Source: Minisyncoccota bacterium (GTDB taxonomy: Bacteria > Patescibacteriota > Minisyncoccia > Phycocordibacterales > UBA9973). Taken from it: a DNA stretch of 64,000 nt. Made by a program: the position numbers and the translations under genes. Below the pieces are notes generated by a model, which did not search any database, was not told the DNA's origin, and saw only the letters and a program-made list of their open reading frames with translations. Where the stretch lies: positions 26,838-90,837 of the forward strand of contig JBAYHW010000002.1 in NCBI GenBank assembly GCA_041665925.1. Direction: 5' to 3'. Below, in pieces: positions 4,381-49,707 of this stretch (the stretch's first letter is position 1; each line of letters opens with the position of its first letter).

Positions 4381-4467
4381 CCCGTTTAGCGGGGACATTG
4401 ATCTTTGACAAGTGAATAGTTGTTCTTTTTACGTTGGGGTCAAATCCAAAGAAAGGAGGTGAAGAAA

Positions 4468-15369: not shown

Positions 15370-15934
15370 TCTAGAAAACAAAATAGAAGCAATACTTTTC
15401 TTTAAGGGTGAACCGGTATCTTTTAAAAAATTAGAAGATATTTTGCAAGTTTCCAAGAACGAAATTAAAGATGCTATTTTTAATTTAAAAAATAATTTAG
15501 AAAATAGGGGAGTGGTGCTTTTAGAACAAGGTGAAGAGATAACACTTGGCACCGCACCCGAATTTTCTAAACTCATAGAACATTTACAGAAAGAAGAATT
15601 GAATAAGGAACTTTCTAAAGCATCGCTAGAAACACTTTCAATTGTTTTATATAAAAATGGAGCTAGTCGAGCAGAGATTGATTATATTCGCGGAGTAAAT
15701 TCTAGCTTCACTCTACGTGCACTTTCTGTGCGCGGGCTAGTAGAAAAGACCCTAGATCCGAAGGACAACAGGCGATATATCTATAAACCAAGCTTTGATC
15801 TTATTTCATTTATGGGAGTTACATCTGTGGAAGAACTGCCAGATTATTCAGAAGTGATCAACGGTATTGAAATCGCCACTAAGACCCTAGAAGAAGAAAC
15901 AAAAAAAGAGGAAGCAAATGCAAGCGCAAACTAA
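15347..15934 (+). CDS. scpB: Segregation and condensation protein B
   Basis: 195 aa. IEAILFFKGEPVSFKKLEDIL... and a second winged-helix GASRAEIDYIRGVNSSFTLRALSVRGLVEK, typical of ScpB. Overlaps scpA. Confidence 0.85.
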   Translation: MKIQMNNSLENKIEAILFFKGEPVSFKKLEDILQVSKNEIKDAIFNLKNNLENRGVVLLEQGEEITLGTAPEFSKLIEHLQKEELNKELSKASLETLSIVLYKNGASRAEIDYIRGVNSSFTLRALSVRGLVEKTLDPKDNRRYIYKPSFDLISFMGVTSVEELPDYSEVINGIEIATKTLEEETKKEEANASAN

Positions 15935-33346: not shown

Positions 33347-34714
33347 TTACAAGGATGCGAGTTTTGGTGCAAGGCCTACGTAGTTTTCTGGAGTAATTCC
33401 CAGAAGCTCTTTTTTTATTTTATCGCTGACATTCAGGGAGCGTATGAATTGATGGATGTCTTCTAGTGTAACTTTTTTCCCACGAGTAAGATCCTTCAAT
33501 TTTTCATACGGTGTTTCTACTCCTTCTCTGCGCAATATAGTCTGAATAGCTTCAGTAATGACCTCAGGGTGTTCCAATAAAGTCTTCACAACTTTCTCTT
33601 TATTAACTTCTATTCTAGATAATCCACTTAGTAAATATTCATATGCAATAAGTGAGTGTGCGAAGGCTACGCCGAAATTTCTTTCTACTGTAGAGTCAGA
33701 TAGGTCACGCTGTAGACGCGAAATCGGAAGTTTTCTAGCGAAAAATTCAAAGAGAGAATTAGCTAACCCAAAATTTCCTTCACTGTTTTCAAAGAAAATC
33801 GGATTTATTTTATGTGGCATTGTAGATGATCCTACTTCCCCTGCTTTTGGTTTCTGGACTACCCATTCGTCAGAAATATATCTCCAGATATCTTGGTTGA
33901 AATCAAGTAAAATTGTGTTTATTCTCCTGAGCGTATCGAAAATTGCTACATAACTATCATGGCATTCAATCTGGGTGGTAATAAGATTTGGCGCTAGCTT
34001 CTGTGTTCTTTTTTTATTAAAGCTCTCAATATATTTTTTACTGAATTCTATCCAATTTACATGTGGGTATGCTGACATGTGAGCATTAAAATTTCCCGTT
34101 GCCCCGTTTAACTTAGCTGCAATTTTTATGCTTTCTAATCCTTCCAATCTTTTCTCTATCCTTGTGGCGAAAACTTTCATTTCTTTGCCGAAAGTTGTAG
34201 GAGAAGCAGGCTGTCCATGGGTGCGAGCTAGCATGGGTAGATTTTTGTATTTTTTTGCAAGTAGATTTAATTCTGAGATTATCTTTTCAATTTTAGGAAT
34301 TAAAACATTTTCTAGAGAACCTGAAAGCATTAAGGCGTAAGCTATGTTGTTCGTATCTTCGGAAGTTAAAGCAAAATGTACCCACTCCACACTATCCTTG
34401 AGGGAAGTTTTTTCCAATTTTTCTTTAATAAAGTATTCTACAGCTTTAACGTCGTGATTTGTGGTATTTTCTATTTCTTTTATATTTTTATATGAAACTT
34501 CATTAAATTTTTCAGAAAGGTTTCTGATAATTTTTATTTCAGCTGGAGTAAATTTTCTTAGAGCTGTTTTCCTGGAAAGCGAAAGAGCAATTAAGTATTC
34601 ACCCTCCATCAATACTCGATATTTCATTAAAGCCTCTTCGGAGAAATAAGCCGCAAGCGCGTGAGTTTTTTCAAAATATCTTCCATCTATTGGACTGATA
34701 ACATTATTATACAT
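33347..34714 (-). CDS. purB: Adenylosuccinate lyase
   Basis: 455 aa. SPIDGRY N-terminus and fumarate-lyase signature SSTMPHKINP. Confidence 0.9.
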   Translation of the reverse strand: MYNNVISPIDGRYFEKTHALAAYFSEEALMKYRVLMEGEYLIALSLSRKTALRKFTPAEIKIIRNLSEKFNEVSYKNIKEIENTTNHDVKAVEYFIKEKLEKTSLKDSVEWVHFALTSEDTNNIAYALMLSGSLENVLIPKIEKIISELNLLAKKYKNLPMLARTHGQPASPTTFGKEMKVFATRIEKRLEGLESIKIAAKLNGATGNFNAHMSAYPHVNWIEFSKKYIESFNKKRTQKLAPNLITTQIECHDSYVAIFDTLRRINTILLDFNQDIWRYISDEWVVQKPKAGEVGSSTMPHKINPIFFENSEGNFGLANSLFEFFARKLPISRLQRDLSDSTVERNFGVAFAHSLIAYEYLLSGLSRIEVNKEKVVKTLLEHPEVITEAIQTILRREGVETPYEKLKDLTRGKKVTLEDIHQFIRSLNVSDKIKKELLGITPENYVGLAPKLASL

Positions 34715-34766: not shown

Positions 34767-35759
34767 TTATTTTTTCAAATTTTTAGTAATTCTTTCTAAG
34801 ACGGGCATACTAAAATCATGGTTGAAAGGTTGACCAGTAATCATTTCGTAAATTTCTATATAACGACGGGAAAGCTCAGCTACTAGCTCAACTGGGGCAG
34901 GAGGCAAAACTTCATCTTTGTACGGATCGCAATGCTCCTTAAACCAAAGCCTAAGAAATTCTTTGTCGAAATATTCTGGTTCTTCTCCTTGTTGAAATCG
35001 GGCCTCATAACTTTCTGCTTTCCAGTATCGAGAAGAGTCGGGGGTATGAATCTCGTCTATTAACATTAACTTCCCGTTTTCATCTATTCCCATCTCATAT
35101 TTTGTATCCACCAGTATTAATCCCCTACTAAGAGCAACTTCTTGACCCCTCTTGAAAAGTTTTAAGGCTGTTTCAGACATTTCCGCCCATAATTCTTTTG
35201 AAACTATATTTTCTTCTATAATTTCTGCCGAGGTAATTGGGCGGTCGTGTTCATCGGACTTTGTAGTCGGAGTCAAAACCGGAGTGTCTAATTTTTGGTT
35301 TTTCTTCATTCCTTCTGGCAATGTGAAGTCTCCGAAATTTCTCTGTCCGTTATTATAAATAGTCCAGAGAGAAGTATTTGTTGAGCCAGTAATGTAGCCA
35401 CGAACCACCATTTCTATCGGAATTACCTTGCATTTTTTTGCTACTAAGACATTCGGGTCAGGTGTACTTAGAACATGATTTTGAACAATGTCTTTTGTTT
35501 TTTCAAACCAGAATAAACTTATTTGATTTAAGACTTCCCCTTTGAAAGGTATGGAGGCTATATTTCTATCGAATGAAGAATGTCTGTCGGTGGAGATAAG
35601 GGTAATGTGATCTTGGGCGACATAAATATCTCTTACTTTACCTATCTTCCTTTCACCGAGTTCGGGAAAATTAGTTTCTTTTAATACATCATCTATATGT
35701 TCCTTAATTTTACCTATGTCCATATTAAAAAATTTATTTATAAATAATAATTTTACCAA
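34767..35759 (-). CDS. purC: Phosphoribosylaminoimidazole-succinocarboxamide synthase (SAICAR synthetase), long form
   Basis: 330 aa. IGKVRDIYVAQDHITLISTDRHSSFD matches the PurC ATP-binding N-terminus. Long (eukaryote/Gram-positive-like) form. Confidence 0.85.
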   Translation of the reverse strand: MVKLLFINKFFNMDIGKIKEHIDDVLKETNFPELGERKIGKVRDIYVAQDHITLISTDRHSSFDRNIASIPFKGEVLNQISLFWFEKTKDIVQNHVLSTPDPNVLVAKKCKVIPIEMVVRGYITGSTNTSLWTIYNNGQRNFGDFTLPEGMKKNQKLDTPVLTPTTKSDEHDRPITSAEIIEENIVSKELWAEMSETALKLFKRGQEVALSRGLILVDTKYEMGIDENGKLMLIDEIHTPDSSRYWKAESYEARFQQGEEPEYFDKEFLRLWFKEHCDPYKDEVLPPAPVELVAELSRRYIEIYEMITGQPFNHDFSMPVLERITKNLKK

Positions 35760-36894
35760 GTGTAAGTTTTGAATTTACTAAAACTCTTGGCTCATCTTCT
35801 TTTGTAATTTTACCGGCAATTTTTGCTTTTATGGAAAAATCCTTAGCTCTTTTGATGCAATAATCCGCATCTTTTTCATCCACTACTATCAACATACCTT
35901 GTCCCCCATTCCATACTTCATAAAATTCTTCATCGGAGATGTTGTGCCACAAGGCGCACTTCTTCATAATTTCTGGAGGTTCCCACAGATCAAAAAGTTC
36001 TGCGGACAGTTTTTTCGAGAAAAGAATATCTTTTGCAAGTTTCTCTTTAAGTGCTCCTCCTGAAAGGTGAACAATAGATTTTATTTCTATTTCAGATTTA
36101 AAATTGGGATCATACCATCCATGTAAAGTATTAATAAATACATCATACAGTACAGATGGGCATGCTGCTTGTTTGATACTTGTTTGTGCTTCTGGGTTTT
36201 CCCACCATTTTGTCCCGAATTTATCTTGAAATGCTTTTCTCACTGAAGTTCCGCCATTACACCTGAAACCTTCTTCTTTTAGGGCTATTATCACTTGTCC
36301 TGGTTTTAATTTATCCCCAGTTATCATTTTCAGAGGATGGTAAGCTCCGATCATTACTCCAGACCAATTAAATTTTGTTTGCGATCCAATTATCTCTGAA
36401 CCTAGAGCATCTTTTACTTGGGCAGTCTCCCCCTTGAGTGCTACTATATTGCTAATTTTTGTGACTTCACCTAAACCTCGCAAAAGATTTTTATAAGTTT
36501 CACTAACTTCATTTCCGGCTTGCCCTATGCCGTTGGTATCCAAGATATTAAGAAAAACTAAAGGTATGCCTCCATAACGGGTTACATCGCTTGCGGTCAT
36601 GGCGATAATATCATAAGCTGCCGTTCTGTGCATTTTAGCTGCGTCTACCAGAATACCCTTAGTTCCCATACCATCAGCTGTTGCCTCAATAAAATATCCT
36701 TCTGGTAAATTTTTAAAAACAAAAGGCCTAGGACCCCTAAAATTACCTTCAGATAAATCTTTTACTTCTACGTATGGAGAATTGTTATAACTTTCTTTAC
36801 AAATAGACCCAGCAAAACTACTAAACGCTGCTTCTTCATCAATGTCTACACCATCCTGCGAAGAAATTTTTGTTTTGGTAGTGTTTTCATCCAT
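35734..36894 (-). CDS. purM: Phosphoribosylformylglycinamidine cyclo-ligase (AIR synthetase)
   Basis: 386 aa. TADGMGTKGILV (DGVGTK motif), with PurM N- and C-domains collinear. Confidence 0.85.
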   Translation of the reverse strand: MDENTTKTKISSQDGVDIDEEAAFSSFAGSICKESYNNSPYVEVKDLSEGNFRGPRPFVFKNLPEGYFIEATADGMGTKGILVDAAKMHRTAAYDIIAMTASDVTRYGGIPLVFLNILDTNGIGQAGNEVSETYKNLLRGLGEVTKISNIVALKGETAQVKDALGSEIIGSQTKFNWSGVMIGAYHPLKMITGDKLKPGQVIIALKEEGFRCNGGTSVRKAFQDKFGTKWWENPEAQTSIKQAACPSVLYDVFINTLHGWYDPNFKSEIEIKSIVHLSGGALKEKLAKDILFSKKLSAELFDLWEPPEIMKKCALWHNISDEEFYEVWNGGQGMLIVVDEKDADYCIKRAKDFSIKAKIAGKITKEDEPRVLVNSKLTLGKIIIYK

Positions 36895-36897
36895 GTT

Positions 36898-37413
36898 TTA
36901 TTTCTCTAAATATTTCTTATATCCAATTTCTGAAAGCTTATCACCTTTAGTGGTCTGCTCGTCGCTCATTTTTATTTTATAATCCTTTAATTTTTCTTCT
37001 AGATCTTTGTCTTCAGTAGCAAGGATCTGTATTGCTAGAAGCCCCGCATTTTTCCCTGCATTGATACCTACCGTGGCAACAGGAATTCCTGGAGGCATTT
37101 GAACTGTTGAGAGAAGTGAATCTAATCCGTCTAAGCTTTTGGCTTTTACAGGCAAGCCGATAACTGGGAGCGTCGTATGCGCGGCGATAACTCCAGCTAA
37201 GTGTGCTGCGCCTCCTGCGCCAGCAATTAAAACTTTGATCCCACGTTCTCTGGCACCAGAGGAATATTTTTGCGCTCTTTCTGGGGCGCGATGGGCAGAA
37301 CCGACTGTCATGTCGTAAGTTACCCCAAATTCTTCAATAATTTTTGCCGCTTCAGCGAAGACTTCTAAATCCGAATCCGAACCCATTATTATGCCAACTT
37401 TTGGATTTTTCAT
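36898..37413 (-). CDS. purE: N5-carboxyaminoimidazole ribonucleotide mutase
   Basis: 171 aa. VGIIMGSDSDLEV and the conserved GGAAHLAGV loop. Confidence 0.88.
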   Translation of the reverse strand: MKNPKVGIIMGSDSDLEVFAEAAKIIEEFGVTYDMTVGSAHRAPERAQKYSSGARERGIKVLIAGAGGAAHLAGVIAAHTTLPVIGLPVKAKSLDGLDSLLSTVQMPPGIPVATVGINAGKNAGLLAIQILATEDKDLEEKLKDYKIKMSDEQTTKGDKLSEIGYKKYLEK

Positions 37414-37491
37414 CCCAGTATCAAAAATTTAAAATTTATAATATGACCTTTAACTTACCTCCGTAGATTTTGATACGGGACAGGTATAAAT

Positions 37492-38778
37492 TTACTTTAA
37501 CATTTTTAACGCATTTTCGCCAATATCTTTTCTGTATTGCATTCCTTCAAATGAAATTTTTTCTATTGCTGCATACGCTTTGTTTAAAGCTTCTTCTAAA
37601 GTATTTCCCGAGGCGCTAATGCCGAGTACTCGGCCTCCATTTGTGACCAAGTTATCATTTTCAATTTTTGTTCCAGCATGAAAAATAACAATATCAGAAA
37701 AGAGTTCGGCATCTTTTATTCCAGAAATGATTTTACCTTTTTCGTAGTTGCCAGGGTAGCCACCGGATGCCAGGATTACTGTGCAAGCGAAAAGTTTTGT
37801 CCACTTAACTTCTATTTTATCCAAGGTTCCGTCAATACACGCGTCAAAAATGTCTAAAATATCTGAATCGAGCAATCTCATATAAGTCTGGGTTTCAGGA
37901 TCACCAAAACGTGCATTGTATTCTAAAATTTTTGGACCATCTTTTGTTAACATTAGCCCTGGGTATAAAACTCCCGCGAAGGGGGTGCTCATTCCTGCCA
38001 TTGAGGAAATCGTTTTCAAGACAATATTTTCTTCTATTTCCTTCACTAATTCTTGTGATACGAACGGGAGTGGAGCAATTGTTCCCATGCCTCCAGTATT
38101 TAACCCCGTATCTCCCTCTCCGATTTTTTTATGATCTTGGGAAGGTGGGAACATTAGATAATTTTTACCATCAGAAAATGCATGAATAGAAATTTCTGGG
38201 CCGGCTAAAAATTTCTCTATAACAATTTCTCTCCCCGCATCACCGAAGACTTTTTTGATAAAAATTTCTTCAAGTGTTTTATCTACGTCTTCCCGAGTCT
38301 CACAGATGATTACACCCTTACCTAAAGCAAGCCCGCTTGCTTTTATTACCAAGGGCAACATTTCACTAGCGGCATATCTCTTCGCATTTTCATAGTCATT
38401 AAATATTTCAAATTTAGCCGTAGGCAAGCCATTTTTAGCCATAAATTCTTTAGAAAAAGCCTTGGACCACTCGAGCCGAGCAGCAGCCTTGGTGGGGCCC
38501 CAGATGCGTAGACCAGCGTCCTTAAAAGTGTCTACTATTCCTAAGGCGAGTGGGTCATCGGGTAAGGCTAAAGTTAAATCAATCTTTTCTTTTTTAGCAA
38601 AATCTAAAAGCCCCTTAATGTCTGTGGCTTTCAAGTCTACGTTGGTGCCAAGTTTTGAAGTACCAGCATTACCAGGAGCAAAAAATATATCTCCGGCTCG
38701 GAGTGATTGCTTCACTTTCCAGCCAATGGAGTGTTCCCTACCACCACTACCTATTATTAAAATTTTTATTTTTCCCAT
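37492..38778 (-). CDS. purD: Phosphoribosylamine--glycine ligase (GAR synthetase)
   Basis: ATP-grasp. Start placed at MGKIKILIIGSGGREHS (the track ORF extends 17 codons further). C-terminal EGMQYRKDIG. Confidence 0.85.
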   Translation of the reverse strand: MGKIKILIIGSGGREHSIGWKVKQSLRAGDIFFAPGNAGTSKLGTNVDLKATDIKGLLDFAKKEKIDLTLALPDDPLALGIVDTFKDAGLRIWGPTKAAARLEWSKAFSKEFMAKNGLPTAKFEIFNDYENAKRYAASEMLPLVIKASGLALGKGVIICETREDVDKTLEEIFIKKVFGDAGREIVIEKFLAGPEISIHAFSDGKNYLMFPPSQDHKKIGEGDTGLNTGGMGTIAPLPFVSQELVKEIEENIVLKTISSMAGMSTPFAGVLYPGLMLTKDGPKILEYNARFGDPETQTYMRLLDSDILDIFDACIDGTLDKIEVKWTKLFACTVILASGGYPGNYEKGKIISGIKDAELFSDIVIFHAGTKIENDNLVTNGGRVLGISASGNTLEEALNKAYAAIEKISFEGMQYRKDIGENALKMLK

Positions 38779-38783
38779 ATCTT

Positions 38784-39497
38784 CTATATTATAACTTTTT
38801 GAGTTTCTTGTAACTTTTTTTCGTAACATTCATCAATTTTTTCGATAAAATCTGCGGATGAAAAGGTGTCGATATTGTTGTAGAAAAACTCACTCAACAT
38901 TATTCTAACTTGTCTTAAATTATTATACACGGTTTCAAAAGAGGGTTCAGCTTTTTTTAAATTATCAAAATCTCCTATTACAAAATCCAAAGTTCTTGGC
39001 TCCTGTTTACTTAATAAAAAGAAATATATATCTGCTACAGCAAATTTAAAACCTTTTGCAGCCGCATCTAATGCTTCTTGAAAACACGCATTTAAAAAAA
39101 ATTCTAAAGCAACAGTTTTTTTCATGAACTCTTCGCCATAACGATACATATTAAATCTACCGTTGCTTCCTATGCAAATTTGATCATTGAGAAAACCATC
39201 AGTCATTAAAATACTTTTCCCGTCTGTCCCTATCCTGAAAGTTGGAAAAACTTTTAATCCACTATTTTTTGCCAGTACGTACATTTCAAATGCATGCCGT
39301 ACTAATTCCTGTGATTTTTTTTCTGAAAAATAACTCTTATTATACTTTTTTATAACAAATTGTTTGGGCTTACCTCTAACGTTGACGATGGAAGTAAATA
39401 TATTTCCCATTCCTCCTGTGTCATCTAGGAGTTTCTCTTCAGAAATTTGTACAGCAGTTTCTTTTCCTGTATGTTTTTGAAAAATTTCTTCTTGCAT
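38784..39497 (-). CDS. Hypothetical protein (237 aa) embedded in the pur operon; weak protein-kinase-like motifs
   Basis: No confident family. FVIKKY (VAIK-like), ILMTDGF and VIGDFDNL (DFG-like) hint at a kinase-like fold. Tightly packed between purD and purN. Confidence 0.45.
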   Translation of the reverse strand: MQEEIFQKHTGKETAVQISEEKLLDDTGGMGNIFTSIVNVRGKPKQFVIKKYNKSYFSEKKSQELVRHAFEMYVLAKNSGLKVFPTFRIGTDGKSILMTDGFLNDQICIGSNGRFNMYRYGEEFMKKTVALEFFLNACFQEALDAAAKGFKFAVADIYFFLLSKQEPRTLDFVIGDFDNLKKAEPSFETVYNNLRQVRIMLSEFFYNNIDTFSSADFIEKIDECYEKKLQETQKVII

Positions 39498-39561
39498 TTT
39501 TATTTAAATGTTATAACAAATTTGAGAACAAGGTGATGAAGTAGTCATCACTATTATTATT

Positions 39562-40191
39562 CTATGATGCTGTTAATTTTTCTAAAACTTCTACATACAA
39601 AGCGTTTTCTTTTTTCTTCAACCTAGAGTATAAAGATTCAACATTGTCGTAATCCTCAATTTTTTCAAAACATCTTCCCAAGACAGGGCCGAAATCAAAA
39701 TTTAAAGTAAGGAAATGAATAGAACTTCCGGCAAAAGTTGCTTTTTTGTCTAAAAAGTTACCTATAGCTTTGGTGGTTAACATTCCTTTATTCCAAAGGG
39801 CCAGAGTGTTATCGGGACTTTTTACACTCCCGTTTTCAGTATCAGGAATTAAACCAGGATGTAGATTTAAGATTTTATTAGGAAATGTTTGTATAACCTC
39901 GTCTAAAATAATTTGTTTCCAACCAGCCAAACAAACATAATCCAAATTTAATTTCAATAAAAGTGGTAGCAATTCTTCCTTTGTCGAACAGATTTCAATA
40001 GGTAAATTATGTTTTCGCGCACGCTCTAATCCTTGCGCCTCAGTTTTGTCTGAAATCACTATGGCGATCTCTGCTTGGATTTTTCCATTTTCAATGCCGT
40101 CAATTATAGCCTGAAGATTCGTGCCGGTACCTGTGTCGGAAATAAGAACTGCCAGCCTTAATAATTTTTTCGTATTATTTATTTGGGACAT
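39562..40191 (-). CDS. purN: Phosphoribosylglycinamide formyltransferase
   Basis: 209 aa. LAVLISDTGTGTNLQAII N-terminus and the NLHPGLIP motif region of formyltransferases. Confidence 0.8.
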   Translation of the reverse strand: MSQINNTKKLLRLAVLISDTGTGTNLQAIIDGIENGKIQAEIAIVISDKTEAQGLERARKHNLPIEICSTKEELLPLLLKLNLDYVCLAGWKQIILDEVIQTFPNKILNLHPGLIPDTENGSVKSPDNTLALWNKGMLTTKAIGNFLDKKATFAGSSIHFLTLNFDFGPVLGRCFEKIEDYDNVESLYSRLKKKENALYVEVLEKLTAS

Positions 40192-41569
40192 CGTAATTTA
40201 TTTCTTTTCGACGTTCTTTTAAATCAATAGGATACTCTCCCGTAAAAAAAGAGGTGGATAGTTCATTTTTGGGTAATCCGATAGATTTAATTAAACCGTC
40301 GAGAGATAAATAATGCAGCGATGTAGCTCCGAGGAATTTCCTGATTTCTTCAACTGTTTTATTTGATGCAATTAATCCTTTTTGATTTGGGGTATCAATG
40401 CCGTAAAAATCTGGGAATCGGATAGGTGGAGATGATACTAAGAAGTGTACTTCTTTCGCTCCAGCCTCAAATAAAGTTTTAACTATTCCTCTACTAGTCG
40501 TCCCCCTAACTATAGAATCATCAATAACAGCTATACTTTTATCTTTCAACGCTTCATTTAAAGGTATGAGCTTAAGAGCCACAGAATGTTCTCGCGATTT
40601 TTGGTCCGGCTCGATAAATGTTCTGTGCACATATCTATTTTTTACTAAAGCCATTTCAATGGGGATTCCTGAAATTTCACTATATCCTAGAGCCACTGGA
40701 GTTGCTGTGTCAGGTACTGGAACTATCGCATCAACCTTCAATTTATATTCTCGAGCGAGTTCTCGACCGAAGTTTTTCCTGACGTTGTAAATTAATTTTC
40801 CTTCTAGGATGCTATCTGGGCGAGAAAAATACACATATTCAAATATGTCATGTTTAGGGTTCGGTTCTGCTAATTTGATGCTCTTCAAACCTTTACTATT
40901 TATTACAATCATTTCTCCTGGAATGACCTCTCTTATAAAATTAGCCCCAATGGTTGCAAGCGCGCATGTTTCGGATGCCACCACATAACCCTTCTTAATT
41001 TTTCCCAGCACTAGTGGACGCATTCCATATTCGTCTCTCACAGCGACTAAATTATCTTTATCCATCATCACTAGAGAGAAAGCTCCTGTTATTAAAGGGA
41101 AAACTTTTGTCAGGGCGTCGGGTACGGTGTTCCCATTTTTTATGTAAAAATCAATAGCGTCAGTAACAAGCTCTGAGTCCATCCTATTTTTCTGGAGAGT
41201 CTTATGTGAAGATAAGAATTTTTCAAGTGCCTTGACGCTGGGAAGATTTCCATTATGTGCTAAAGCAAAAGAATGTTCTTTATTGATAACAGGTTGAGCG
41301 TGATCTAGGGCTCCACCACCGGAAGTAGAATATCTATTGTGTCCTATCCCAATATATCCTTTTAAATTTTCTATATCTTGCTCTTTATAAACCTGAGCAA
41401 CGAGACCAGCGCCTTTATGGTTATGTAATTTCTTCCCATCACTTGTGGTTATTCCAGAAGCTTCTTGTCCCCTATGCTGCAGTGCAAAAAGAGAAAAAAA
41501 CGCCAATCTTGAAACTGGTAATCCTTTACCGTATATTCCTACGATTCCACATTTTTCTTTTAGTTCCAT
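40175..41569 (-). CDS. purF: Amidophosphoribosyltransferase
   Basis: 464 aa. N-terminal nucleophile CGIVGIYG directly after Met. PRTase domain follows. Confidence 0.88.
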   Translation of the reverse strand: MELKEKCGIVGIYGKGLPVSRLAFFSLFALQHRGQEASGITTSDGKKLHNHKGAGLVAQVYKEQDIENLKGYIGIGHNRYSTSGGGALDHAQPVINKEHSFALAHNGNLPSVKALEKFLSSHKTLQKNRMDSELVTDAIDFYIKNGNTVPDALTKVFPLITGAFSLVMMDKDNLVAVRDEYGMRPLVLGKIKKGYVVASETCALATIGANFIREVIPGEMIVINSKGLKSIKLAEPNPKHDIFEYVYFSRPDSILEGKLIYNVRKNFGRELAREYKLKVDAIVPVPDTATPVALGYSEISGIPIEMALVKNRYVHRTFIEPDQKSREHSVALKLIPLNEALKDKSIAVIDDSIVRGTTSRGIVKTLFEAGAKEVHFLVSSPPIRFPDFYGIDTPNQKGLIASNKTVEEIRKFLGATSLHYLSLDGLIKSIGLPKNELSTSFFTGEYPIDLKERRKEINYDVPNK

Positions 41570-42322
41570 TTATTTATTAAAGTATTTAATTGCGTTTCTA
41601 AATATCTGTAAGCCTTGCCCTTCTCTGGCTCCTTTTTTATTAATGTACCAAAGCGGACTTTGATGTGAAAACATTCCTCGTTCTGGGTGCGGCATTAGGC
41701 CTAGAACTCTGCCATTATACGACAAAACTCCAGCAATGTCATAGTCTGAACCGTTTGGATTTTTTTCTAGATTTTGGAATTTACATATGTTTCCCTTTTC
41801 GTAAACAAAAGCAATTTGTTTACTTTTTTGCATTTTTGCGTACTCATGAGCTGAAATAACATAATGTCCTTCTCCGTGGGCTATCGGAAGAGATAATTTC
41901 TTAATCCCCATAAGCCAAGGACTTTCTCCGGTTACTTTTAGATCCACCCACCTATCTATGTATTTCCCGTTTTTATTAAAAGTAAGTCCACCTGGCAAAA
42001 TTCCGAGGTTGGTCGCAATCTGAAATCCGTTACAAATACCTATTACTAAAGTATCGCGAGATAAAAATTCTTGGAGTTCTTTCGCTAAATGATTTTTAAA
42101 TTTATTTGCATAAGCTTTCCCACTTCCCGTGTCGTCTCCATAAGAAAATCCTCCAGGGAAAGCAAGAACCTGATAATCTTTTAAGATTTTCGGTTTAGAG
42201 ATTAAATCATTCAAATGCACAATATCAGCCTGTCCTCCAGCCCACTCAAAAGCAAACTTCGTTTCCTCTTCACAATTGAGCCCATACCCCGACATTATTA
42301 TAATTTTTGGCTTTTGTTTCAT
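41570..42322 (-). CDS. purQ: Phosphoribosylformylglycinamidine synthase, glutamine amidotransferase subunit
   Basis: 250 aa. IIIMSGYGLNCEEE...GICNGFQI (catalytic Cys in a GATase1 fold) and the MPHPER motif. Confidence 0.85.
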   Translation of the reverse strand: MKQKPKIIIMSGYGLNCEEETKFAFEWAGGQADIVHLNDLISKPKILKDYQVLAFPGGFSYGDDTGSGKAYANKFKNHLAKELQEFLSRDTLVIGICNGFQIATNLGILPGGLTFNKNGKYIDRWVDLKVTGESPWLMGIKKLSLPIAHGEGHYVISAHEYAKMQKSKQIAFVYEKGNICKFQNLEKNPNGSDYDIAGVLSYNGRVLGLMPHPERGMFSHQSPLWYINKKGAREGQGLQIFRNAIKYFNK

Positions 42323-45210
42323 TTGTTTTTATTAGAGAAATTATGGTATATGGTGTGCAATTTTTTTGCGTTTAATTCAGCTAATTTCATTTTATCTGTG
42401 ATTACGAAATTCTTGTCTTTGGAGACTTTTCCGATCTTAGCATGTGGAATATTTTTGATAATTTTTTCAAACGCAGAAACGTTTTTGTGTGACACAGACA
42501 CAAGGATTCTTCCTTGGCTTTCAGAAAAAAGTTTCACTTCTGGTGAACTTGCTGTTCCTGGAAGATTTTTTATTGAAACATTACAGCCAATCATACCGCC
42601 TAGGCTTGCCTTTGCTAAGGCTATAGCAAGCCCCCCAGAATTTATAGAAATCGCAGAGGCTACCAATTCTTTTTCGATTGTTTGCTCTAATGCTTTATAA
42701 ATTTTTATATGCTTCCTTACATCAACTTTAGGAACAGCGTTACCTACATAACCCAGCATCTTAAAATATTCTCCACCACCGAGCTCATCGTAAGTTTCTC
42801 CAAGAATATAAATTACATCGCCACTGCTTTTAAATTCTGGCGATACGGTTTTGTTAAAGTTTGGCATTACACTCAAGGCCGAAATTAGGAGAGTTGGAGG
42901 GACAGAAATAGCCACAGGATTCCCTTTTTCGTCGTACCCTTTGAAATCGTTAAACATGCTATCTTTTCCGGAAATAAAAGGTGTGCCGAAGCCTACAGCA
43001 GTGTCGTAGCAAGCTTTTACAGCCTCTGTGAGCTGATATAAACGCTTAGGGTCATTTGAGCTACACCAGCAGAAATTGTCTAAAATAGCGATATTTGAGA
43101 GCTTCCCACCAGCTGATATGGTGTTCCGGATGGCAGTATCTATAGCACAAGAGGCCATATCATAGGTGCTAATGTCGCCATATGAAGGATAAGTACTGGA
43201 AGTTACTACAATCCCCTTTTTTGAATTTAGGACAGGGTTGAAAACTTGAGCGTCAGTATTTATGCGTCCCTGACCAGAGAGTGGTTTTAAAACAGAGGAC
43301 GCTTGAACTTCGTGATCGTATTGCCCTGAGACGAACGAAAATCCACTAATGTTTTTTTGTCCAAGTAACCTTTCAAGTTCAGCTGTGTAAGATTTTTTGT
43401 TATTAAGTACAGGCTCCGAATGTTTTTCTATGAAGGGTGAAGTTAGTAATTGGTGTTTCGGTAATCCGTCGTGTAGGAAATCCATGTCAATATCCATGAT
43501 TTTTTTACCTTTGTATTCCACAATACATTTTTCAGAATCTGTAAATGTACCTACGATTGTAGCTTCTACTCCGCGGCTATCCATTAAATTTTTAAATATT
43601 TTCCATTTTGATTTTGGTATCGAGAGAGTCATACGCTCTTGAGATTCTGAAATCCAAATTTCCCACGGACGTAAGCCAGGATACTTGAGGGGCACCTTTT
43701 CTAGGTCAACTTTCGCTCCACCACACTCCTTTGCCATTTCTGCAATTGAGCAAGAGATTCCTCCAGCGCCATTATCGGTGATGCTATTATATAAACCCAA
43801 GTCTCGCACCTCTTTCACTATCGCATCACTTAATTTCTTTTGAGTTATTGGGTCACCAATTTGCACCGCAGCAGCAGGAGAATTTGAATCCGTAGCCACA
43901 GAAGAAAATGTCGCTCCATGAATACCATCTAGCCCAACTCTTCCTCCAGCGACTACAATATAATCCCCCACCTTAGCTTTCTTGAGGTGAGAAAGCTTCC
44001 CATTAATTTTTCTTGGAATTAACCCTATAGTACCAGCGAAGACCAAAGGTTTCCCGCGATAACGATCATCGAATTTTAAAAATCCATTTAAAGTAGGAAT
44101 ACCTGAACAATTCCCCCCAGAATTTATTCCTTTAACTACGCCATCCATTATACGTTTAGGAGGTAGCATCAGTTGGGTTAAACTTTTATCCCTATAAAAT
44201 TTCCGCTTATCTTCAGGATTTCCAAAACAGAAACCGTATACATTTGCTACCGGCTTAGCTCCCATGCCGAAACCAATAGTATCTCGGTTTACGCCCACAA
44301 TACCAGTAATAGCTCCCCCGAAAGGATCTAAGGCCGATGGGCTGTTGTGGGTTTCTACTTTATGGGTTATTAAATAATCATTATCGAAAATTATTCCGCC
44401 AGAATTATCACTAAATACCGAGACACAGAAATCCTTCTTCCCTTTTTGTTTGCGAATTAAGTTCGTAGCACCTTTGATGTACGTTTTATATAAACCATCT
44501 TTAATGTCATCAATAGGATTTGCAAAAATAGTGTGCTTGCAGTGTTCTGACCACGTCTGCGCCAATGCCTCGAGCTCGATATCTATAGGATTCCTCTTTA
44601 AACCAAGGAAGTGTTCTTTGATTACCTGCATTGAAGGTAAATCGAGGGCAAGTGGGCCACGTCGGGAACCATTTCTATCTAAAATTCCAAGCTTACCGGT
44701 GTTTTCTAGTTCTTCATCTGTAAAATTTTTGAGTGGGACTTCAATTACTGGAAGAGTTTTTTCTAAAATTACTTGAGGGGCTTTCAGGGGCAGACCCTTT
44801 GTTTTTTGTATCTCTGAAAAACTAGCAATATACGAGCGTTCAATTAATGGATTATGTAGAGAAAGCGCAATTTTCTTTACTTCTTCTGGTTTACTAGATT
44901 TCGAAATAATAAATATCTTTGAAGCATAGACGGCAAACTGCCCATCATTTTTCATGTGAAATAAATCGCAGATAGTTTCTTCAGTAGTGTGTCCGACATT
45001 ATCGGTGACTCCAGGCTTGTATCCAATTTCAATAACGTATGAAAATTTAATAATTTTAGGGAATTTGTTTATAGAAAAGTCTTCAAGGACGGGGTTCGTC
45101 AGAGCTTTCGCTATTTTTTGAATTTTTTCATTAGAGAATTTGTGCGTTATGAGATAGGAGTCAACGAAGTTGGCTTTTCCCTTAGATATCACATATATCC
45201 TTGAAATCAT
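42319..45210 (-). CDS. purL: Phosphoribosylformylglycinamidine synthase, PurS-like N-terminal duplication fused to PurL
   Basis: 963 aa. Two N-terminal PurS-like units (KPGVTDNVGHTTEETICDLF; LTNPVLEDFSI / LHNPLIERSYI) followed by the full PurL AIRS/AIRS-C repeats. Confidence 0.8.
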   Translation of the reverse strand: MISRIYVISKGKANFVDSYLITHKFSNEKIQKIAKALTNPVLEDFSINKFPKIIKFSYVIEIGYKPGVTDNVGHTTEETICDLFHMKNDGQFAVYASKIFIISKSSKPEEVKKIALSLHNPLIERSYIASFSEIQKTKGLPLKAPQVILEKTLPVIEVPLKNFTDEELENTGKLGILDRNGSRRGPLALDLPSMQVIKEHFLGLKRNPIDIELEALAQTWSEHCKHTIFANPIDDIKDGLYKTYIKGATNLIRKQKGKKDFCVSVFSDNSGGIIFDNDYLITHKVETHNSPSALDPFGGAITGIVGVNRDTIGFGMGAKPVANVYGFCFGNPEDKRKFYRDKSLTQLMLPPKRIMDGVVKGINSGGNCSGIPTLNGFLKFDDRYRGKPLVFAGTIGLIPRKINGKLSHLKKAKVGDYIVVAGGRVGLDGIHGATFSSVATDSNSPAAAVQIGDPITQKKLSDAIVKEVRDLGLYNSITDNGAGGISCSIAEMAKECGGAKVDLEKVPLKYPGLRPWEIWISESQERMTLSIPKSKWKIFKNLMDSRGVEATIVGTFTDSEKCIVEYKGKKIMDIDMDFLHDGLPKHQLLTSPFIEKHSEPVLNNKKSYTAELERLLGQKNISGFSFVSGQYDHEVQASSVLKPLSGQGRINTDAQVFNPVLNSKKGIVVTSSTYPSYGDISTYDMASCAIDTAIRNTISAGGKLSNIAILDNFCWCSSNDPKRLYQLTEAVKACYDTAVGFGTPFISGKDSMFNDFKGYDEKGNPVAISVPPTLLISALSVMPNFNKTVSPEFKSSGDVIYILGETYDELGGGEYFKMLGYVGNAVPKVDVRKHIKIYKALEQTIEKELVASAISINSGGLAIALAKASLGGMIGCNVSIKNLPGTASSPEVKLFSESQGRILVSVSHKNVSAFEKIIKNIPHAKIGKVSKDKNFVITDKMKLAELNAKKLHTIYHNFSNKNK

Positions 45211-45249: not shown

Positions 45250-46227
45250 ATGAAAAACATCGTAACCGTAGGAGGAGGTACAGGTAGCTATACAATTTTG
45301 TCCGGATTAAAAAATCTTCCGGACGTTTCTTTGACTGCGCTTGTGTCTATGGCTGACGATGGAGGGTCTGGCGGAGCACTTCGAAATGAACTTGGAGTTC
45401 TTCCCCCAGGAGATGTAAGACTATGCCTCGTAGCTTTATCTGAACACAGCAATATAATGCGTGAACTTATGAATTATAGGTTTAAAGAAGGAACATTAAG
45501 GGGGCATAGTTTTGGAAATTTATTTTTAGCCGCATTTGAAAAAATTACAGGAGATTTTGCAAAAGGTGTGGAAGCAGCTTCGGAAATTCTAAAAATCAAA
45601 GGTAATGTAATACCTGTGACAAAGGACAAAGCAGAATTAGTTGTTGTGCTTTTGGATGGTAAAAAATTTGAAGGAGAAAACAACATACAAGATGCCGACT
45701 TGCAGTCTGTAGGGCTTAAGGAAGTTTTTTACAAAAACGACGTTTTCTTAAATGAACATGCCAAGCTCGCAATACTAAAGGCAGATTATATTATTTTAGG
45801 TCCTGGGAATTATTTTTGCTCTATTGTGCCCAACCTAATAGTTAAAGGTTTTAAAGAGGCAGTCTCAGAAAGTAAAGCTAAGATTATTTTACCTTTAAAT
45901 TTAACAAACAAATCAGGCCACACTAAGAACTGGAAAGTAAGTAGCTATATAACTGATATAGAGAAATACCTAGAAAAACCAGTAGATTTCATCTTAGTGA
46001 ATAAAGATGAACTATCTCACGAACAAATTGAACGCTATAAACAAGAAGAAGGAGAAGGAGTTATCATCGAAGACGACTTTAATGATACTCGGGTTATTCG
46101 GGCTTCCCTGCTCTCCAGTGTTATATTTGAAAAAGCTAAAGAAGATGTACTCCCAAGTACTAAAGGTTTCATTCGTCACGATTCGGAAAAATTAGCAGAA
46201 TGTATAAATAAAATAATAAATAAATAA
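45250..46227 (+). CDS. YvcK / CofD-like family protein (UPF0052; gluconeogenesis factor / 2-phospho-L-lactate transferase family)
   Basis: 325 aa. NIVTVGGGTGSYTILSGLKN...VSMADDGGSGGALRNELGVLPPGDVRLCLVALSE matches the YvcK/CofD signature nearly residue for residue. Confidence 0.8.
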   Translation: MKNIVTVGGGTGSYTILSGLKNLPDVSLTALVSMADDGGSGGALRNELGVLPPGDVRLCLVALSEHSNIMRELMNYRFKEGTLRGHSFGNLFLAAFEKITGDFAKGVEAASEILKIKGNVIPVTKDKAELVVVLLDGKKFEGENNIQDADLQSVGLKEVFYKNDVFLNEHAKLAILKADYIILGPGNYFCSIVPNLIVKGFKEAVSESKAKIILPLNLTNKSGHTKNWKVSSYITDIEKYLEKPVDFILVNKDELSHEQIERYKQEEGEGVIIEDDFNDTRVIRASLLSSVIFEKAKEDVLPSTKGFIRHDSEKLAECINKIINK

Positions 46228-46228
46228 T

Positions 46229-46849
46229 ATGGCAAAGTATAAATACATTTTTGACTTCGACGATACATTATTTAAAAACACAGAACTGCTCAAACCACGC
46301 ATTTTTAGCATGATTTCGAAGGCTACTGGTACATCAGAAAAAGACATTGAAACTCGATACTATACTCCAGCTATCCGGGATCATTTTTCATTGATTGAAT
46401 TTATTCAAGAATTTTTTACCCAGAAAGGTATCCCCCAAGACGGAGTCGACTCACTTTTTAAAGAAATAATGAGCGAAAGTCACAAATTTTTAAATGTTGA
46501 ATTATTAGAAGAAATAAAAAAAATCCCCCCTGAAGACTGTTATATCGTTACCACTGGACGACAAGATTGGAACTGGAGCAAACTAGCATATAGTGGTATT
46601 TTAGAATATTTTATTCCACAAAATATTGTTGTTGTTCCGGGGAAAAAGAGTAGATCCATTAGAAATATTTGTCACGAGAATAAAGATTTCACTGTTATTT
46701 TCATTGATGATAAATCAAGGTTCATTGAAGAGTTAAAACAAGAAAAAGTACCTAACCTTCAATGTCTTTTATATAAAGGAGAAAATTTGACAGAATTGGT
46801 AAAAAAAATTGAAGGATATAGGTCTAGTGAACTACGTGGACTAAAATAA
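46229..46849 (+). CDS. HAD-superfamily hydrolase
   Basis: 206 aa. Motif I FDFDDTL, motif II IVTTG, motif IV IFIDDK. Confidence 0.65.
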   Translation: MAKYKYIFDFDDTLFKNTELLKPRIFSMISKATGTSEKDIETRYYTPAIRDHFSLIEFIQEFFTQKGIPQDGVDSLFKEIMSESHKFLNVELLEEIKKIPPEDCYIVTTGRQDWNWSKLAYSGILEYFIPQNIVVVPGKKSRSIRNICHENKDFTVIFIDDKSRFIEELKQEKVPNLQCLLYKGENLTELVKKIEGYRSSELRGLK

Positions 46850-48238
46850 CTACCAATATCTCTCTACTACATGATGCTCTTCGGGTCCAGTGCCGACGTA
46901 GATGATTTTAGCATTTAGGATTTTTTCTAGAAATTTAACATACTCAAGTGCTTCTTTGGGCAACTTGCTACCATGGTCTGATAGTTTTCCTTTCCAGCCA
47001 GGAAAAGTTCTATAGATACATTTTATTTTTTCTCTAGAGAGATCAAAAGGGACTTCCTCGGTTTTTTTACCGTTAATTATATAACTAGTACAAACTTTAA
47101 TTTTCTTTAGACCAGAAAGTACGTCCAATTTTGTCAACACGAGGTCAGTAGCGTAGTTCATTTCTATCGCATATTTTAATAAAGGAATATCAATCCATCC
47201 AGTTCTCCTTAATCTGCCAGTGGTGGCCCCTATCTCATTTCCAGCGCGCCTTATAGCTACGCCCTGCTCAAATTCATTTTCACTATTTAAGTTAGGCATA
47301 GGGAATTTTGCTTTTTCTTCAGAATATTTTTTATCTCTACACCATACGGCCGACCTCTCTCCTCCAAGTTCCGTTGGGAAAGGCCCTTCTCCTACTTTTG
47401 TAACATAAGCTTTCATTATACCTATAGCTCCTCCGACATATGACGGAGGAATTCCTAGCCCTGTGCCTACTCCACTAGCTATTGTGTGTGATGAAGTAAC
47501 ATACGGATAATGACCAAATCGGACATCTAAAAGCGCTCCTTGTGCTCCTTCAGCTATGACTACATTTCCACGAGCTAAGGCGTCCCCTACTATCTTCGCA
47601 GAGTCTACTAGTTGTATTGATCGTAGAAATTTAATTCCTTTGAAAAATTGCTCTTCATTTTTCTTTAGTTCATTATCCGGAACCTCATAATCAAAAACTT
47701 TTTTTAATGTATCTCTGTGTTCCGCCGTTAAAGCCTTGTATTTCTTTTCAAAATCTTTATAGAAGATATCTCCAACGCGCAATGCTCGCCTTAAGGTCAG
47801 GTCAGTATAAGATGGGGAAATTCCCTTCCCTGTTGAACCAATTTTCTTTTTACCTTTTGTCTTTTCTGATACGGAATCTAAAATTAAATGAGTCGGTATT
47901 GTCAGAACCGCATGCGGAGAAACAGACATTCTCTTCAGGAATGAGATTTCTCTAGGAATCATCTTTACCTCTTCAGCAAGCGCCCCAGGATTTATGACCA
48001 TCCCCGCGCCTAGATGAATTTGTGCTTTACCAAAAACTCCGGACGGAATTAAATGAAAGACATAGCAAATCCCCTTATGCCAGATTGTATGCCCAGCATT
48101 ATTTCCTCCTTGGAATCTTACTATTAAATCTTTGTTTGATAAACCTGAAGCTATCTTAGCGACACCTTTCCCTTTCCCTTCATCTCCCCACTGTAAGCCG
48201 ATCAGAGGAGTAATTTTAGATCTCTTTTTTTTTATCAT
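46850..48238 (-). CDS. purA: Adenylosuccinate synthetase
   Basis: 462 aa. GLQWGDEGKGKGV P-loop and FQGGNNAGHT. Confidence 0.92.
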   Translation of the reverse strand: MIKKKRSKITPLIGLQWGDEGKGKGVAKIASGLSNKDLIVRFQGGNNAGHTIWHKGICYVFHLIPSGVFGKAQIHLGAGMVINPGALAEEVKMIPREISFLKRMSVSPHAVLTIPTHLILDSVSEKTKGKKKIGSTGKGISPSYTDLTLRRALRVGDIFYKDFEKKYKALTAEHRDTLKKVFDYEVPDNELKKNEEQFFKGIKFLRSIQLVDSAKIVGDALARGNVVIAEGAQGALLDVRFGHYPYVTSSHTIASGVGTGLGIPPSYVGGAIGIMKAYVTKVGEGPFPTELGGERSAVWCRDKKYSEEKAKFPMPNLNSENEFEQGVAIRRAGNEIGATTGRLRRTGWIDIPLLKYAIEMNYATDLVLTKLDVLSGLKKIKVCTSYIINGKKTEEVPFDLSREKIKCIYRTFPGWKGKLSDHGSKLPKEALEYVKFLEKILNAKIIYVGTGPEEHHVVERYW

Positions 48239-49707
48239 TGTTTTTTGTAATTGGGCGCTGGGCTAACCATAAAGATATCGTGGACATGACTTTCATTTAA
48301 GCCAGCAGAAGTAATAGTATAGAAAGAAGCATCGCGAAGTTCAGTAATATTTCGAGCTCCCAAATAACCCATTCCTGCACGCAACCCTCCCATGTATTGA
48401 TGGATTATTTCTGAAAGTGCTCCTTTATAAGAAACATGACCAGAAACTCCTTCGGGGACTAATTTTGTTGAATCATTCTGATCTTCCTGAAAGTATCTAT
48501 CTTTAGATCCTCTTTGCATTGCGCCGAGAGATCCCATGCCTCGATATTTTTTAAATTTTTGATCGTTCATGGTTATAGTATCTCCGGGGGCTTCATCGGT
48601 GCCAGCGAACATACTACCAGCCATTACCACGTCCGCACCAAAAGCGAGCGCCTTAACAACATCTCCGCTGTGTTTTATCCCACCATCGGCAATAACAGGA
48701 ATATTTAGTTTTTTACAAGCTTCATAAACAGACGAAACGGCAGAAAGTTGTGGAACTCCAACCCCAGATACTATGCGTGTAGTACAAATTGAACCTGGGC
48801 CAATACCAACTTTTATTGCGTTTGCTCCTGCCTTTATTAAATCTAGAGCAGCTTTCCCTGTGGCTACATTGCCAGCAATAATATCTAATTTAGGGTATGC
48901 TTTTCGTATTTTTTTAACTGCCTCGAGTACACCTTTAGAGTGGCCGTGAGCAGTGTCTACACATACTGCGTCTACATTACTTTTTACTAATGCATCTACT
49001 TGAGCTAGAACATCAGATCCAGCCCCCACAGCAGCCCCGACGCAAAGTCGGCCGAGCTTGTCTTTTGTTGCTAATGGGTATTCTTTTGATTTCGCAATAT
49101 CTCGATAAGTAATCAATCCGACTAATCTATTATTTTTATCAACCAAAGGAAGTTTCTCTATGCCATATTTGCTAAATAAATTATTTGCTTCCTCTATGGT
49201 AGTGTTCGGTCCACCAGTTATGAGTTTAGTGGTCATTATTTTTTCTATTGGAGTTGCAGCATCTTTCTGAAAACGCATATCTCTATTGGTGACTATACCT
49301 ACCAATAAACCATTTTTATCAACTACCGGGAACCCCCCAAAGTGATACTTTTTTTGTATTTCAAATACGTCACCAGCCGTAGCTTCGACTGGAATCGTAA
49401 CTGGATCGGTAATTCGTCCCGACTCGTAACGTTTTACTCGTTCTACTTCATGGGCTTGATCGATGATAGAAAGATTTTTGTGAATAATGCCCATCCCCCC
49501 TAGCTCTGCCATAGCTATAGCCATTTTTGATTCTGTCACGGTATCCATAGCGGCTGACATGAATGGGATATTGAGGCTAATATTTTTCGTAAGTTGAGTT
49601 TTAGTTATTACGTTTTTTGGTAAAACTTCACTATAATTTGGCACCAGTAAAATATCATCAAAAGTAAGTCCTTGTCCAAGATTTTTTGGGGAAGAGTTTT
49701 TTGGCAT
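48235..49707 (-). CDS. guaB: Inosine-5'-monophosphate dehydrogenase
   Basis: 490 aa. [17 protein letters not shown]-terminus, tandem CBS domains, and catalytic loop [11 protein letters not shown]. Confidence 0.92.

Follow-up and report, generated by a model that had tools for sequence, protein, structure and literature searches.

What is an uncharacterised 237-aa open reading frame (ORF) doing in the middle of a purine operon that carries neither purH nor purK? The question is raised by a 64,000-nt stretch of a Minisyncoccota bacterium genome (assembly GCA_041665925.1, contig JBAYHW010000002.1, positions 26,838 to 90,837 of the forward strand), hereafter called the window. The ORF is encoded on the minus strand between purN and purD, and it was originally predicted to be a candidate for a missing or alternative purine step, or for a pathway-linked regulator. 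The analysis presented here places the ORF, by its modelled fold and its conserved residues, in an unannotated family of minimal proteins, mostly from Patescibacteria, within the protein-kinase-like (PKL) superfamily. The alternative-purine-step reading is refuted at the family level.

The closest relatives of the ORF occupy the same purN-purD slot in eight distinct loci (the window, L001, L002/L011, L012/L019, L014/L023, L020, L024, and L037). In L001, L012, and L014, a canonical bifunctional purH (MGS and AICARFT_IMPCHas domains) lies 5.8-7 kb downstream of the ORF orthologue, in the same cluster. The sister genomes L043, L044, and L045 hold a complete cluster with purH, arranged as purQ-purF-purN-purD-(purA, guaB)-guaA-purH-...-purE-purM-purC-purB-90aa-PBP. 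In these genomes purN runs directly up to purD or overlaps it, and the ORF is altogether missing. Clusters with and without the ORF are interspersed in the purD and purF trees, which are simple neighbour-joining trees and weakly resolved. The ORF is dispensable for the purine pathway. Because it is carried by some Paceibacterota but not by their close relatives, it is an optional passenger or a regulator and not the missing purH. The proposal that the ORF supplies a missing step, and with it the expected co-occurrence with purH absence, is thus contradicted by the orthologues that sit beside a canonical purH and by the clusters that are complete without the ORF. The proposal fails for purK as well. 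PurE carried the SAHR motif of class I enzymes, and purK was lacking, in every cluster compared, with the ORF (L001, L011, L012, and L014) or without it (L043-L045); presence of the ORF is thus not tied to the absence of purK.

The absence of purH and purK from the cluster was borne out across the window. A tblastn search of the window with the purH of a relative as query gave a sole match of 40 aa (E 1.6), which is not credible. No PurH, PurP, PurO, or ATP-grasp PurK was among the Pfam hits on record for the genes called along contig positions 19.5-100.5 kb. This interval, ~81 kb of the 124,365-bp contig, comprises the window minus ~740 nt (49.7-50.4 kb of the window, with two small ORFs) and extends ~10 and ~7 kb past its ends. 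The window also lacks guaA. In a list of the best 120 relatives of purH, none was recognised as coming from the source metagenome-assembled genome (MAG), which is titled 'Candidatus Paceibacterota bacterium': 30 clusters were checked and no accession fell near MFA6520286, while 18 of the ~40 NCBI-sourced candidates carried no accession and hence were not assignable to the MAG. The common arrangement in relatives has purA, guaB, guaA, and purH between purD and purE. In the window and in L011, purD is followed directly by purE (junction 37413-37492 in the window), and the purA-guaB-guaA-purH segment is gone from there; guaB-purA is relocated upstream of purL in the window. The window has an intact guaB, whose product depends on GuaA, and this arrangement would be most simply explained if the guaA-purH pair were located elsewhere in the fragmented MAG and not lost. 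As to purK, the window PurE has the SAHR class I-type motif, and purK is found neither in the window nor in the related pur clusters examined. An Arg in place of a Lys distinguishes class I PurE from the human class II PurE (PMC10484210). PurK is lacking in many archaea, which has been ascribed to non-enzymatic formation of N5-carboxyaminoimidazole ribonucleotide (N5-CAIR) at high CO2 (PMC3261824). In the window lineage, too, a class I PurE appears to function in the absence of PurK, a situation described for some archaea under high CO2.

The 237-aa ORF is a genuine gene and not a chance ORF. A word-indexed search returned 10 homologous clusters with 34-44% identity (E 1e-50 to 1e-22). A profile search against 1.84 billion representatives returned 484 clusters at E <= 1e-3, 117 of which were found at E <= 1e-30. 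The metagenome scan was run from a 40-sequence alignment, and conservation was counted in an alignment of 136 family members. The family comprises ~480 clusters at 50% identity, mostly from Patescibacteria, and nearly all of its members are single-domain proteins of 205-300 aa, typically ~230-260 aa. Species-representative genomes gave seven matches, all in MAGs, and six of the seven were titled Patescibacteria, Paceibacterota, or Nomurabacteria. The ORF protein had no usable match in Pfam (even at E <= 10), NCBIfam, PADLOC, or the annotated PHROGs, and sequence searches of the PDB yielded kinases below threshold only. No relatives were found in viral contigs, and no description of the family was found in literature searches.

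Most family members are located outside purine contexts, an outcome that the original prediction had itself named as speaking against a purine role. L013, for example, has no pur genes within 10 kb on either side; its ORF homologue lies between a fumarase gene and an IMPDH/GMP-reductase-family gene, upstream of the 90aa-PBP block. Distant members adjoin genes for DsbA/DsbB, sigma-70/primase, MurC, a TrmB regulator, a LOG-family protein, methyltransferases, and others, with no consistent partner. When the neighbours at 42 loci were clustered, the only recurrent partners other than pur genes were a DsbA-like protein (3), an ABC ATPase (3), a 177-aa methyltransferase-like ORF (2), and a TrmB-type helix-turn-helix (HTH) protein (2). 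None of these recurs consistently enough, so no function can be assigned from the neighbours.

Structural prediction, which had been suggested as a check on the ORF, gave a confident PKL fold. The AlphaFold2 model, built on a 10-sequence alignment, had a mean predicted local distance difference test score (pLDDT) of 88.8 and a predicted template modelling score (pTM) of 0.86. The model is bilobal: the N-lobe has a five-stranded sheet and helix alphaC, and a hinge joins it to a helical C-lobe that carries the beta6-beta9 catalytic/Mg loops. Foldseek searches against the PDB matched PRPK/Bud32, Rio1, and then canonical kinases including CaMKII, each with probability 1.0 and a template modelling (TM) score of ~0.5; the viral structures matched by the model were again kinases. 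Searched against the PDB, the profile of the 136 members gave 34 matches at E <= 1. Every one of them was weak (best E 0.022), and the ones recognisable by name are protein kinases. In HMMER alignments, the consensus IGxGxFGxV...F-V-I-K fell on the Gly-rich loop and the beta3 Lys of PKR, Tie2, and EphB1. Weak matches to Pfam Pkinase or PK_Tyr_Ser-Thr were obtained for 11-12 of the 136 members (best 6e-5). A weak resemblance to thioredoxin (E 0.1, 'GLKVFPTFRI' vs 'GIRVVPTFKI') was rejected as a local helix-hairpin likeness because the whole-protein fold is that of a kinase.

The weak kinase-like motifs FVIKKY and DFD, pointed out in the original prediction, proved to be true VAIK-like and DFG-like motifs, given their conservation across the 136 members: FVIKKY holds the near-invariant Lys50, and GDFDN the invariant Asp176 (Table 1). 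The Gly-rich loop and beta3 Lys of kinases (GxGxxG, VAIK) are present at the family level, and the window copy retains G28, G31, and K50. Asp176 in GD(F/L)D corresponds to the metal-binding Asp of DFG, and Asp178 is a second conserved acid. Other conserved positions are Thr86 (129/136), Asn193 (128), Arg88 (127), and Asp171 (124). The putative catalytic-loop residue Asp156 is not preceded by His-Arg, and the residue at position +5 is hydrophobic and not the Asn of HRDxxxxN. No acidic residue reaches 70% in helix 59-78, where an alphaC Glu would be expected; the residues conserved there are A66, A69, Y73, A76, and K77. Only two helices follow the DFG-like motif in the model, which therefore has no activation segment or substrate-docking lobe. 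By this predicted fold and these core residues, the ORF protein is assigned to the PKL superfamily.

The position of the ORF in the operon was confirmed when the window sequence was re-read. It starts with ATG and ends with TAG; as originally described, 5 nt (AAGAT) separate its stop codon from the purD ATG at 38778. The same 5-nt junction is found in L001, where the ORF overlaps purN by 8 nt. Because the purD start lies only 5 nt past the ORF stop, the two genes are probably co-transcribed or translationally coupled. On the other side, a 64-nt gap separates the purN stop from the ORF start. This spacer holds a perfect 7-bp inverted repeat with a 5-nt loop (GTGATGA-CTACT-TCATCAC, 39533-39551), 36 nt 5' of the ORF start, which was scored as terminator-like in a promoter/terminator scan and has a weak T tail. 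Promoter-like sites in the same scan were not commoner than in shuffled sequence and so were not used as evidence.

Several features mark the ORF as an accessory gene. It is the most diverged and fastest-evolving gene of the cluster, with 40-44% identity to its orthologues vs 54-84% for the flanking Pur enzymes. It is also the most AT-rich, with a GC content of 0.307 (GC3 0.235) vs 0.346-0.426 for the rest of the cluster. In relatives, the purN-purD junction proves to be a hot spot for insertions: beside the kinase-like ORF it harbours a small HTH gene, an alpha/beta hydrolase gene, or an IS200-like transposase (Table 1). The hydrolase in L012, a 245-aa ORF after the homologue, had been considered as a tandem paralogue and is not a second copy. 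A close relative designated P0006, found on more than 20 contigs, is nested within the pur-linked clade and has non-purine surroundings. In its loci (L003-L006 and L021), the homologue lies immediately upstream of a gene for a 547-aa large serine recombinase. The adjacent block of LTD, S24-peptidase, and SpaA-like genes occurs in both orientations with respect to the homologue-recombinase pair (L004 and L006 vs L005), and a second insertion context is next to ribonucleotide reductase (L003). The P0006 region is suggested to be a mobile or invertible element.

On balance, we consider it probable that the ORF encodes an accessory ATP-dependent phosphotransferase or ATPase that is co-expressed with the pur genes. 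The gene would have lodged in the purN-purD junction within one Paceibacterota/Nomurabacteria clade and would be expressed with the operon without being a pathway step. As it would be transcribed with the pur genes, the dose of the protein would follow purine demand. Judging from the fold and the conserved residues, Lys50 and the overlying Gly-rich loop would hold ATP, Mg2+ would be bound by Asp176 with Asp178, and Asp156 of the catalytic loop would act on the acceptor, the gamma-phosphate being transferred or hydrolysed. The C-lobe appears to be cut to two helices, as in Rio, Bud32, and HopBF1. Because such a lobe has no activation segment or docking subdomains, the protein would most likely act on one specific partner, as a phosphotransferase or an ATPase switch, and not as a broad-specificity kinase. 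The protein would then be catalytically active, its target would be a protein and not a small molecule, and it might have a regulatory role. The fold and the accessory status of the ORF are held with high confidence and are much surer than the nature of the target.

Some observations weigh against this explanation. The Gly-rich loop of the window copy is degenerate, with D26 and M30, and no branch of its clade is longer than that of the window copy. Since neither the catalytic-loop Asn nor the alphaC Glu is conserved, the protein could instead be a pseudokinase, an atypical transferase, or an ATPase. Eight lineages keep the gene in the same slot, which could mean a real purine-linked function and not hitch-hiking, as could the IMPDH/GMP-reductase-family neighbour in L013. 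The pathway-linked regulator of the original prediction is thus a possible role as far as the kinase-like fold and the repeated pur linkage of the closest relatives go, and the mostly non-purine setting of the wider family speaks against it.

Other explanations were weighed against the accessory phosphotransferase or ATPase. A small-molecule kinase is unlikely, though it deserves consideration. Its substrate would come from purine salvage or the purine pathway (a nucleoside or an imidazole riboside), or would be a toxic compound or antibiotic, as for aminoglycoside and macrolide phosphotransferases (APH/MPH). Nucleotide-metabolism neighbours do recur (the pur operon in eight loci, IMPDH/GMPR in L013, a LOG-family gene in L029, and ribonucleotide reductase in L003), and the patchy, mobile-element-linked distribution is typical of resistance genes. 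However, the matches that rank highest by structure and by sequence are kinases or ATPases that act on proteins, and the Gly-rich loop and VIK are those of eukaryotic-type protein kinases. APH and choline-kinase-type enzymes have the Brenner motif HxDxxxxN and a helical substrate-binding insertion in the C-lobe; the protein lacks the motif and its model lacks the insertion, which sets it outside that group. Moreover, L043-L045 have the whole purine pathway without the gene. Rather unlikely is a Patescibacteria-specific, purine-linked signalling or salvage kinase, which would phosphorylate a Pur enzyme, a pathway intermediate, or a nucleoside and thereby tune or feed de novo synthesis. It is far less likely that, in the lineage of the window and L011, where purH is gone from the cluster, the long-branch copy took over the ATP-dependent formylation of 5-aminoimidazole-4-carboxamide ribonucleotide (AICAR) in a PurP-like manner.

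A selfish or conflict gene, namely a toxin-antitoxin kinase toxin or an anti-phage component at a permissive junction and unlinked to purines, would account for the variable presence among close relatives, the fast divergence and AT-richness, the serine recombinase and the two orientations of the region in P0006, and the IS200-like transposases in L014 and L024. In L002/L011 the next gene upstream is a small HTH gene, and in L016 a ParE toxin gene lies nearby. We nevertheless consider this explanation improbable. PADLOC recognised 0 of 10 members even at E <= 1, no PHROG of known function and no viral contig was matched, and neither HipA_C nor another toxin domain was found. No antitoxin-sized partner is consistent across loci, the HTH neighbour being limited to L002/L011, and the same operon slot is held across lineages whose PurD proteins are only ~68-74% identical, which argues for long vertical retention. 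A dead pseudokinase, or a nucleotide-binding scaffold or sensor that binds ATP/GTP or a Pur enzyme without phosphate transfer, is improbable as well. Neither the catalytic-loop Asn, the His and Arg of HRD, nor the alphaC Glu is conserved, and Rio and Bud32, the nearest structural relatives, are mainly ATPases within complexes; but Lys50, Asp156, Asp176, and Asp178 are conserved almost absolutely in 136 diverged members, which argues for retained gamma-phosphate chemistry. That the ORF replaces PurH, as PurP/PurO do in archaea, or PurK is hardly credible. It was encouraged by a window with a class I SAHR PurE and neither purH nor purK, by the lack of a recognised MAG purH among the relatives listed, and by the long branch of the window copy; the protein-kinase-like ATP-binding fold is also distantly related to ATP-grasp. 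Against it stand the orthologues with a canonical purH, the complete clusters L043-L045 without the ORF, and a fold that differs from those of PurH, PurO, PurP, and PurK. The fact that guaA, normally beside purH, is missing from the window too while guaB is intact suggests that the guaA-purH block is elsewhere. For PurK, the gene is lacking and PurE carries SAHR regardless of the ORF, a situation explained in other organisms by the non-enzymatic route to N5-CAIR at high CO2 (PMC3261824).

The ORF protein was compared with known minimal and canonical kinases. Like the RIO kinases (Rio1/Rio2/RIOK3; A. fulgidus Rio1, PDB 1ZP9), it is of similar size, has a truncated C-lobe without an activation segment or docking helices, and shares the beta3 Lys and the metal-binding Asp. 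The likeness is structural only: identity is ~14%, Pfam RIO1 (PF01163) matches 0/136 members at any threshold, the HxDLSxxN loop (with neither its His nor its Asn) and IDxxQ are absent, and there is no ribosome-biogenesis context. Bud32/PRPK of the KEOPS complex, another minimal kinase of ~230 aa, gave the top Foldseek matches (6wqx, 7szc, and 4ww5). It differs from the ORF protein in sequence (11-13% identity), and its HGDLTxxN loop is not conserved in the ORF family. No Kae1/TsaD, Cgi121, or N6-threonylcarbamoyladenosine (t6A) genes were found among the annotated neighbours, many neighbours in the shorter loci having no Pfam hit or being unscanned. HopBF1-type kinases (PDB 6PWD) are likewise bacterial and have a very small kinase domain with a pared-down C-lobe. 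However, identity is 8%, and HopBF1 is secreted by plant pathogens as a type III effector, whereas the ORF protein has no secretion context and is encoded in a biosynthetic operon of Patescibacteria.

As for Hanks-type Ser/Thr/Tyr kinases (PF00069/PF07714), the family consensus aligns to subdomains I-II and has the DFG-like GD(F/L)D. The window protein differs in having no Pfam match and no HRD...N, alphaC Glu, activation loop, APE, or alphaG-alphaI, and as a whole it is ~100 aa shorter than a canonical kinase domain. With the gathering threshold unreached and alphaF-alphaI absent, it does not belong to this group. Nor does it belong with the HipA-like toxins or defence kinases, as it has no HipA domain, no PADLOC match, and no conserved antitoxin. 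With PurH, PurP, PurO, and PurK it shares the purine-operon neighbourhood alone and, for PurP and PurK, the use of ATP; the fold is unrelated, and PF01808/PF02142 are absent.

The apparent purH gap in this candidate-phyla genome is not filled by the ORF, and a rearrangement that moved the guaA-purH block explains it better. The present outcome is an annotation gain and not a new pathway. The ORF family is newly defined, having been annotated only as 'hypothetical' and without a Pfam or NCBIfam model, and its kinase-like domain, whose catalytic loop is unusual, ranks among the smallest. Very few regulators have been recognised in Patescibacteria, and a mini-kinase expressed within a biosynthetic operon would help to approach their physiology should its target prove purine-related.

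Table 1. Coordinates of the ORF, its conserved residues, the surrounding purine genes, and other features. Positions are those of the window unless a locus is named; conservation is given as members out of 136, and pur and gua genes were identified with Pfam and NCBIfam.
Feature	Position	Strand	Remarks
237-aa ORF (FAM)	38784..39497	-	GenBank MFA6520286.1; locus WCT44_01610; annotation: hypothetical protein
Gly-loop remnant G-G-M-G, codons 28-31	39405..39416	-	G28 132/136, G31 111/136; consensus IGxGxFGxV
Lys50 of FVIKKY	39348..39350	-	beta3 VAIK-equivalent ATP-binding Lys; 135/136; aligns to kinase VIK Lys
Asp156, putative catalytic-loop Asp	39030..39032	-	predicted beta6-beta7 loop; 132/136; assigned from topology
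D-F-D of GDFDN, codons 176-178	38964..38972	-	Asp176 136/136, Asp178 125/136
purN-FAM spacer	39498..39561	-	64 nt; contains perfect hairpin
purB	33347-34714	-	
purC	34767-35759	-	
purM	35734-36894	-	sequence-divergent; TIGR00878 118 bits vs cut-off 236
purE	36898-37413	-	SAHR class I-type motif
purD	37492-38778	-	TIGR00877 at 1.3e-152
purN-like glycinamide ribonucleotide (GAR) formyltransferase	39562-40191	-	Formyl_trans_N 2.4e-28; TIGR00639 115 bits vs cut-off 150
purF	40175-41569	-	
purQ	41570-42322	-	
purL	42319-45210	-	963 aa
purA	46850-48238	-	
guaB	48235-49707	-	
90-aa HTH gene, purN-purD slot	L002 9694-9966; L011 890-1162		directly upstream of ORF homologue
IS200-like Y1 transposase, purN-purD slot	L014 687-1352	-	next to ORF homologue; also in L024
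alpha/beta hydrolase, purN-purD slot	L012 10706-11443		
CofD-family gene	45250-46227		adjoins 206-aa ORF
206-aa ORF	46229-46849	+	no Pfam hit
u582 paralogues	15918-17669; 18565-20301	+	~560-600-aa ORFs without Pfam hit
u582 in relatives	L002 1652-6803; L012 5279-7009; L011 7216-8961; L015 3-1118		first gene in L043-L045
ORF of ~514-539 aa	4420-6039	+	no Pfam hit on record; GC 0.53

Further features of the window were recorded. PurM and PurN both score well under their NCBIfam equivalog thresholds and are unusually divergent enzymes in the window lineage; the purM of L014 is only 25% identical to that of the window. The 206-aa ORF and the CofD-family gene form a pair on the opposite strand, wedged between purA and purL, and tblastn gave no counterpart in the related loci L001-L017. 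The two window copies of the family that we designated u582 are 41-42% identical to the L002 copy and lie among the cell-wall genes VanY, MraY, FtsW, and MurG. In relatives, one to three tandem copies of u582 occur between purL and purQ or after purB. The stretch at 4420-6039 has a much higher GC content than the rest of the window (~0.37). An rRNA was ruled out there, as Rfam gave one tRNA only in the window. The C-terminal half of the ORF in this stretch opens with the Rossmann-like motif 'IKIAVVGFGDFG', and the ORF may have been horizontally acquired.

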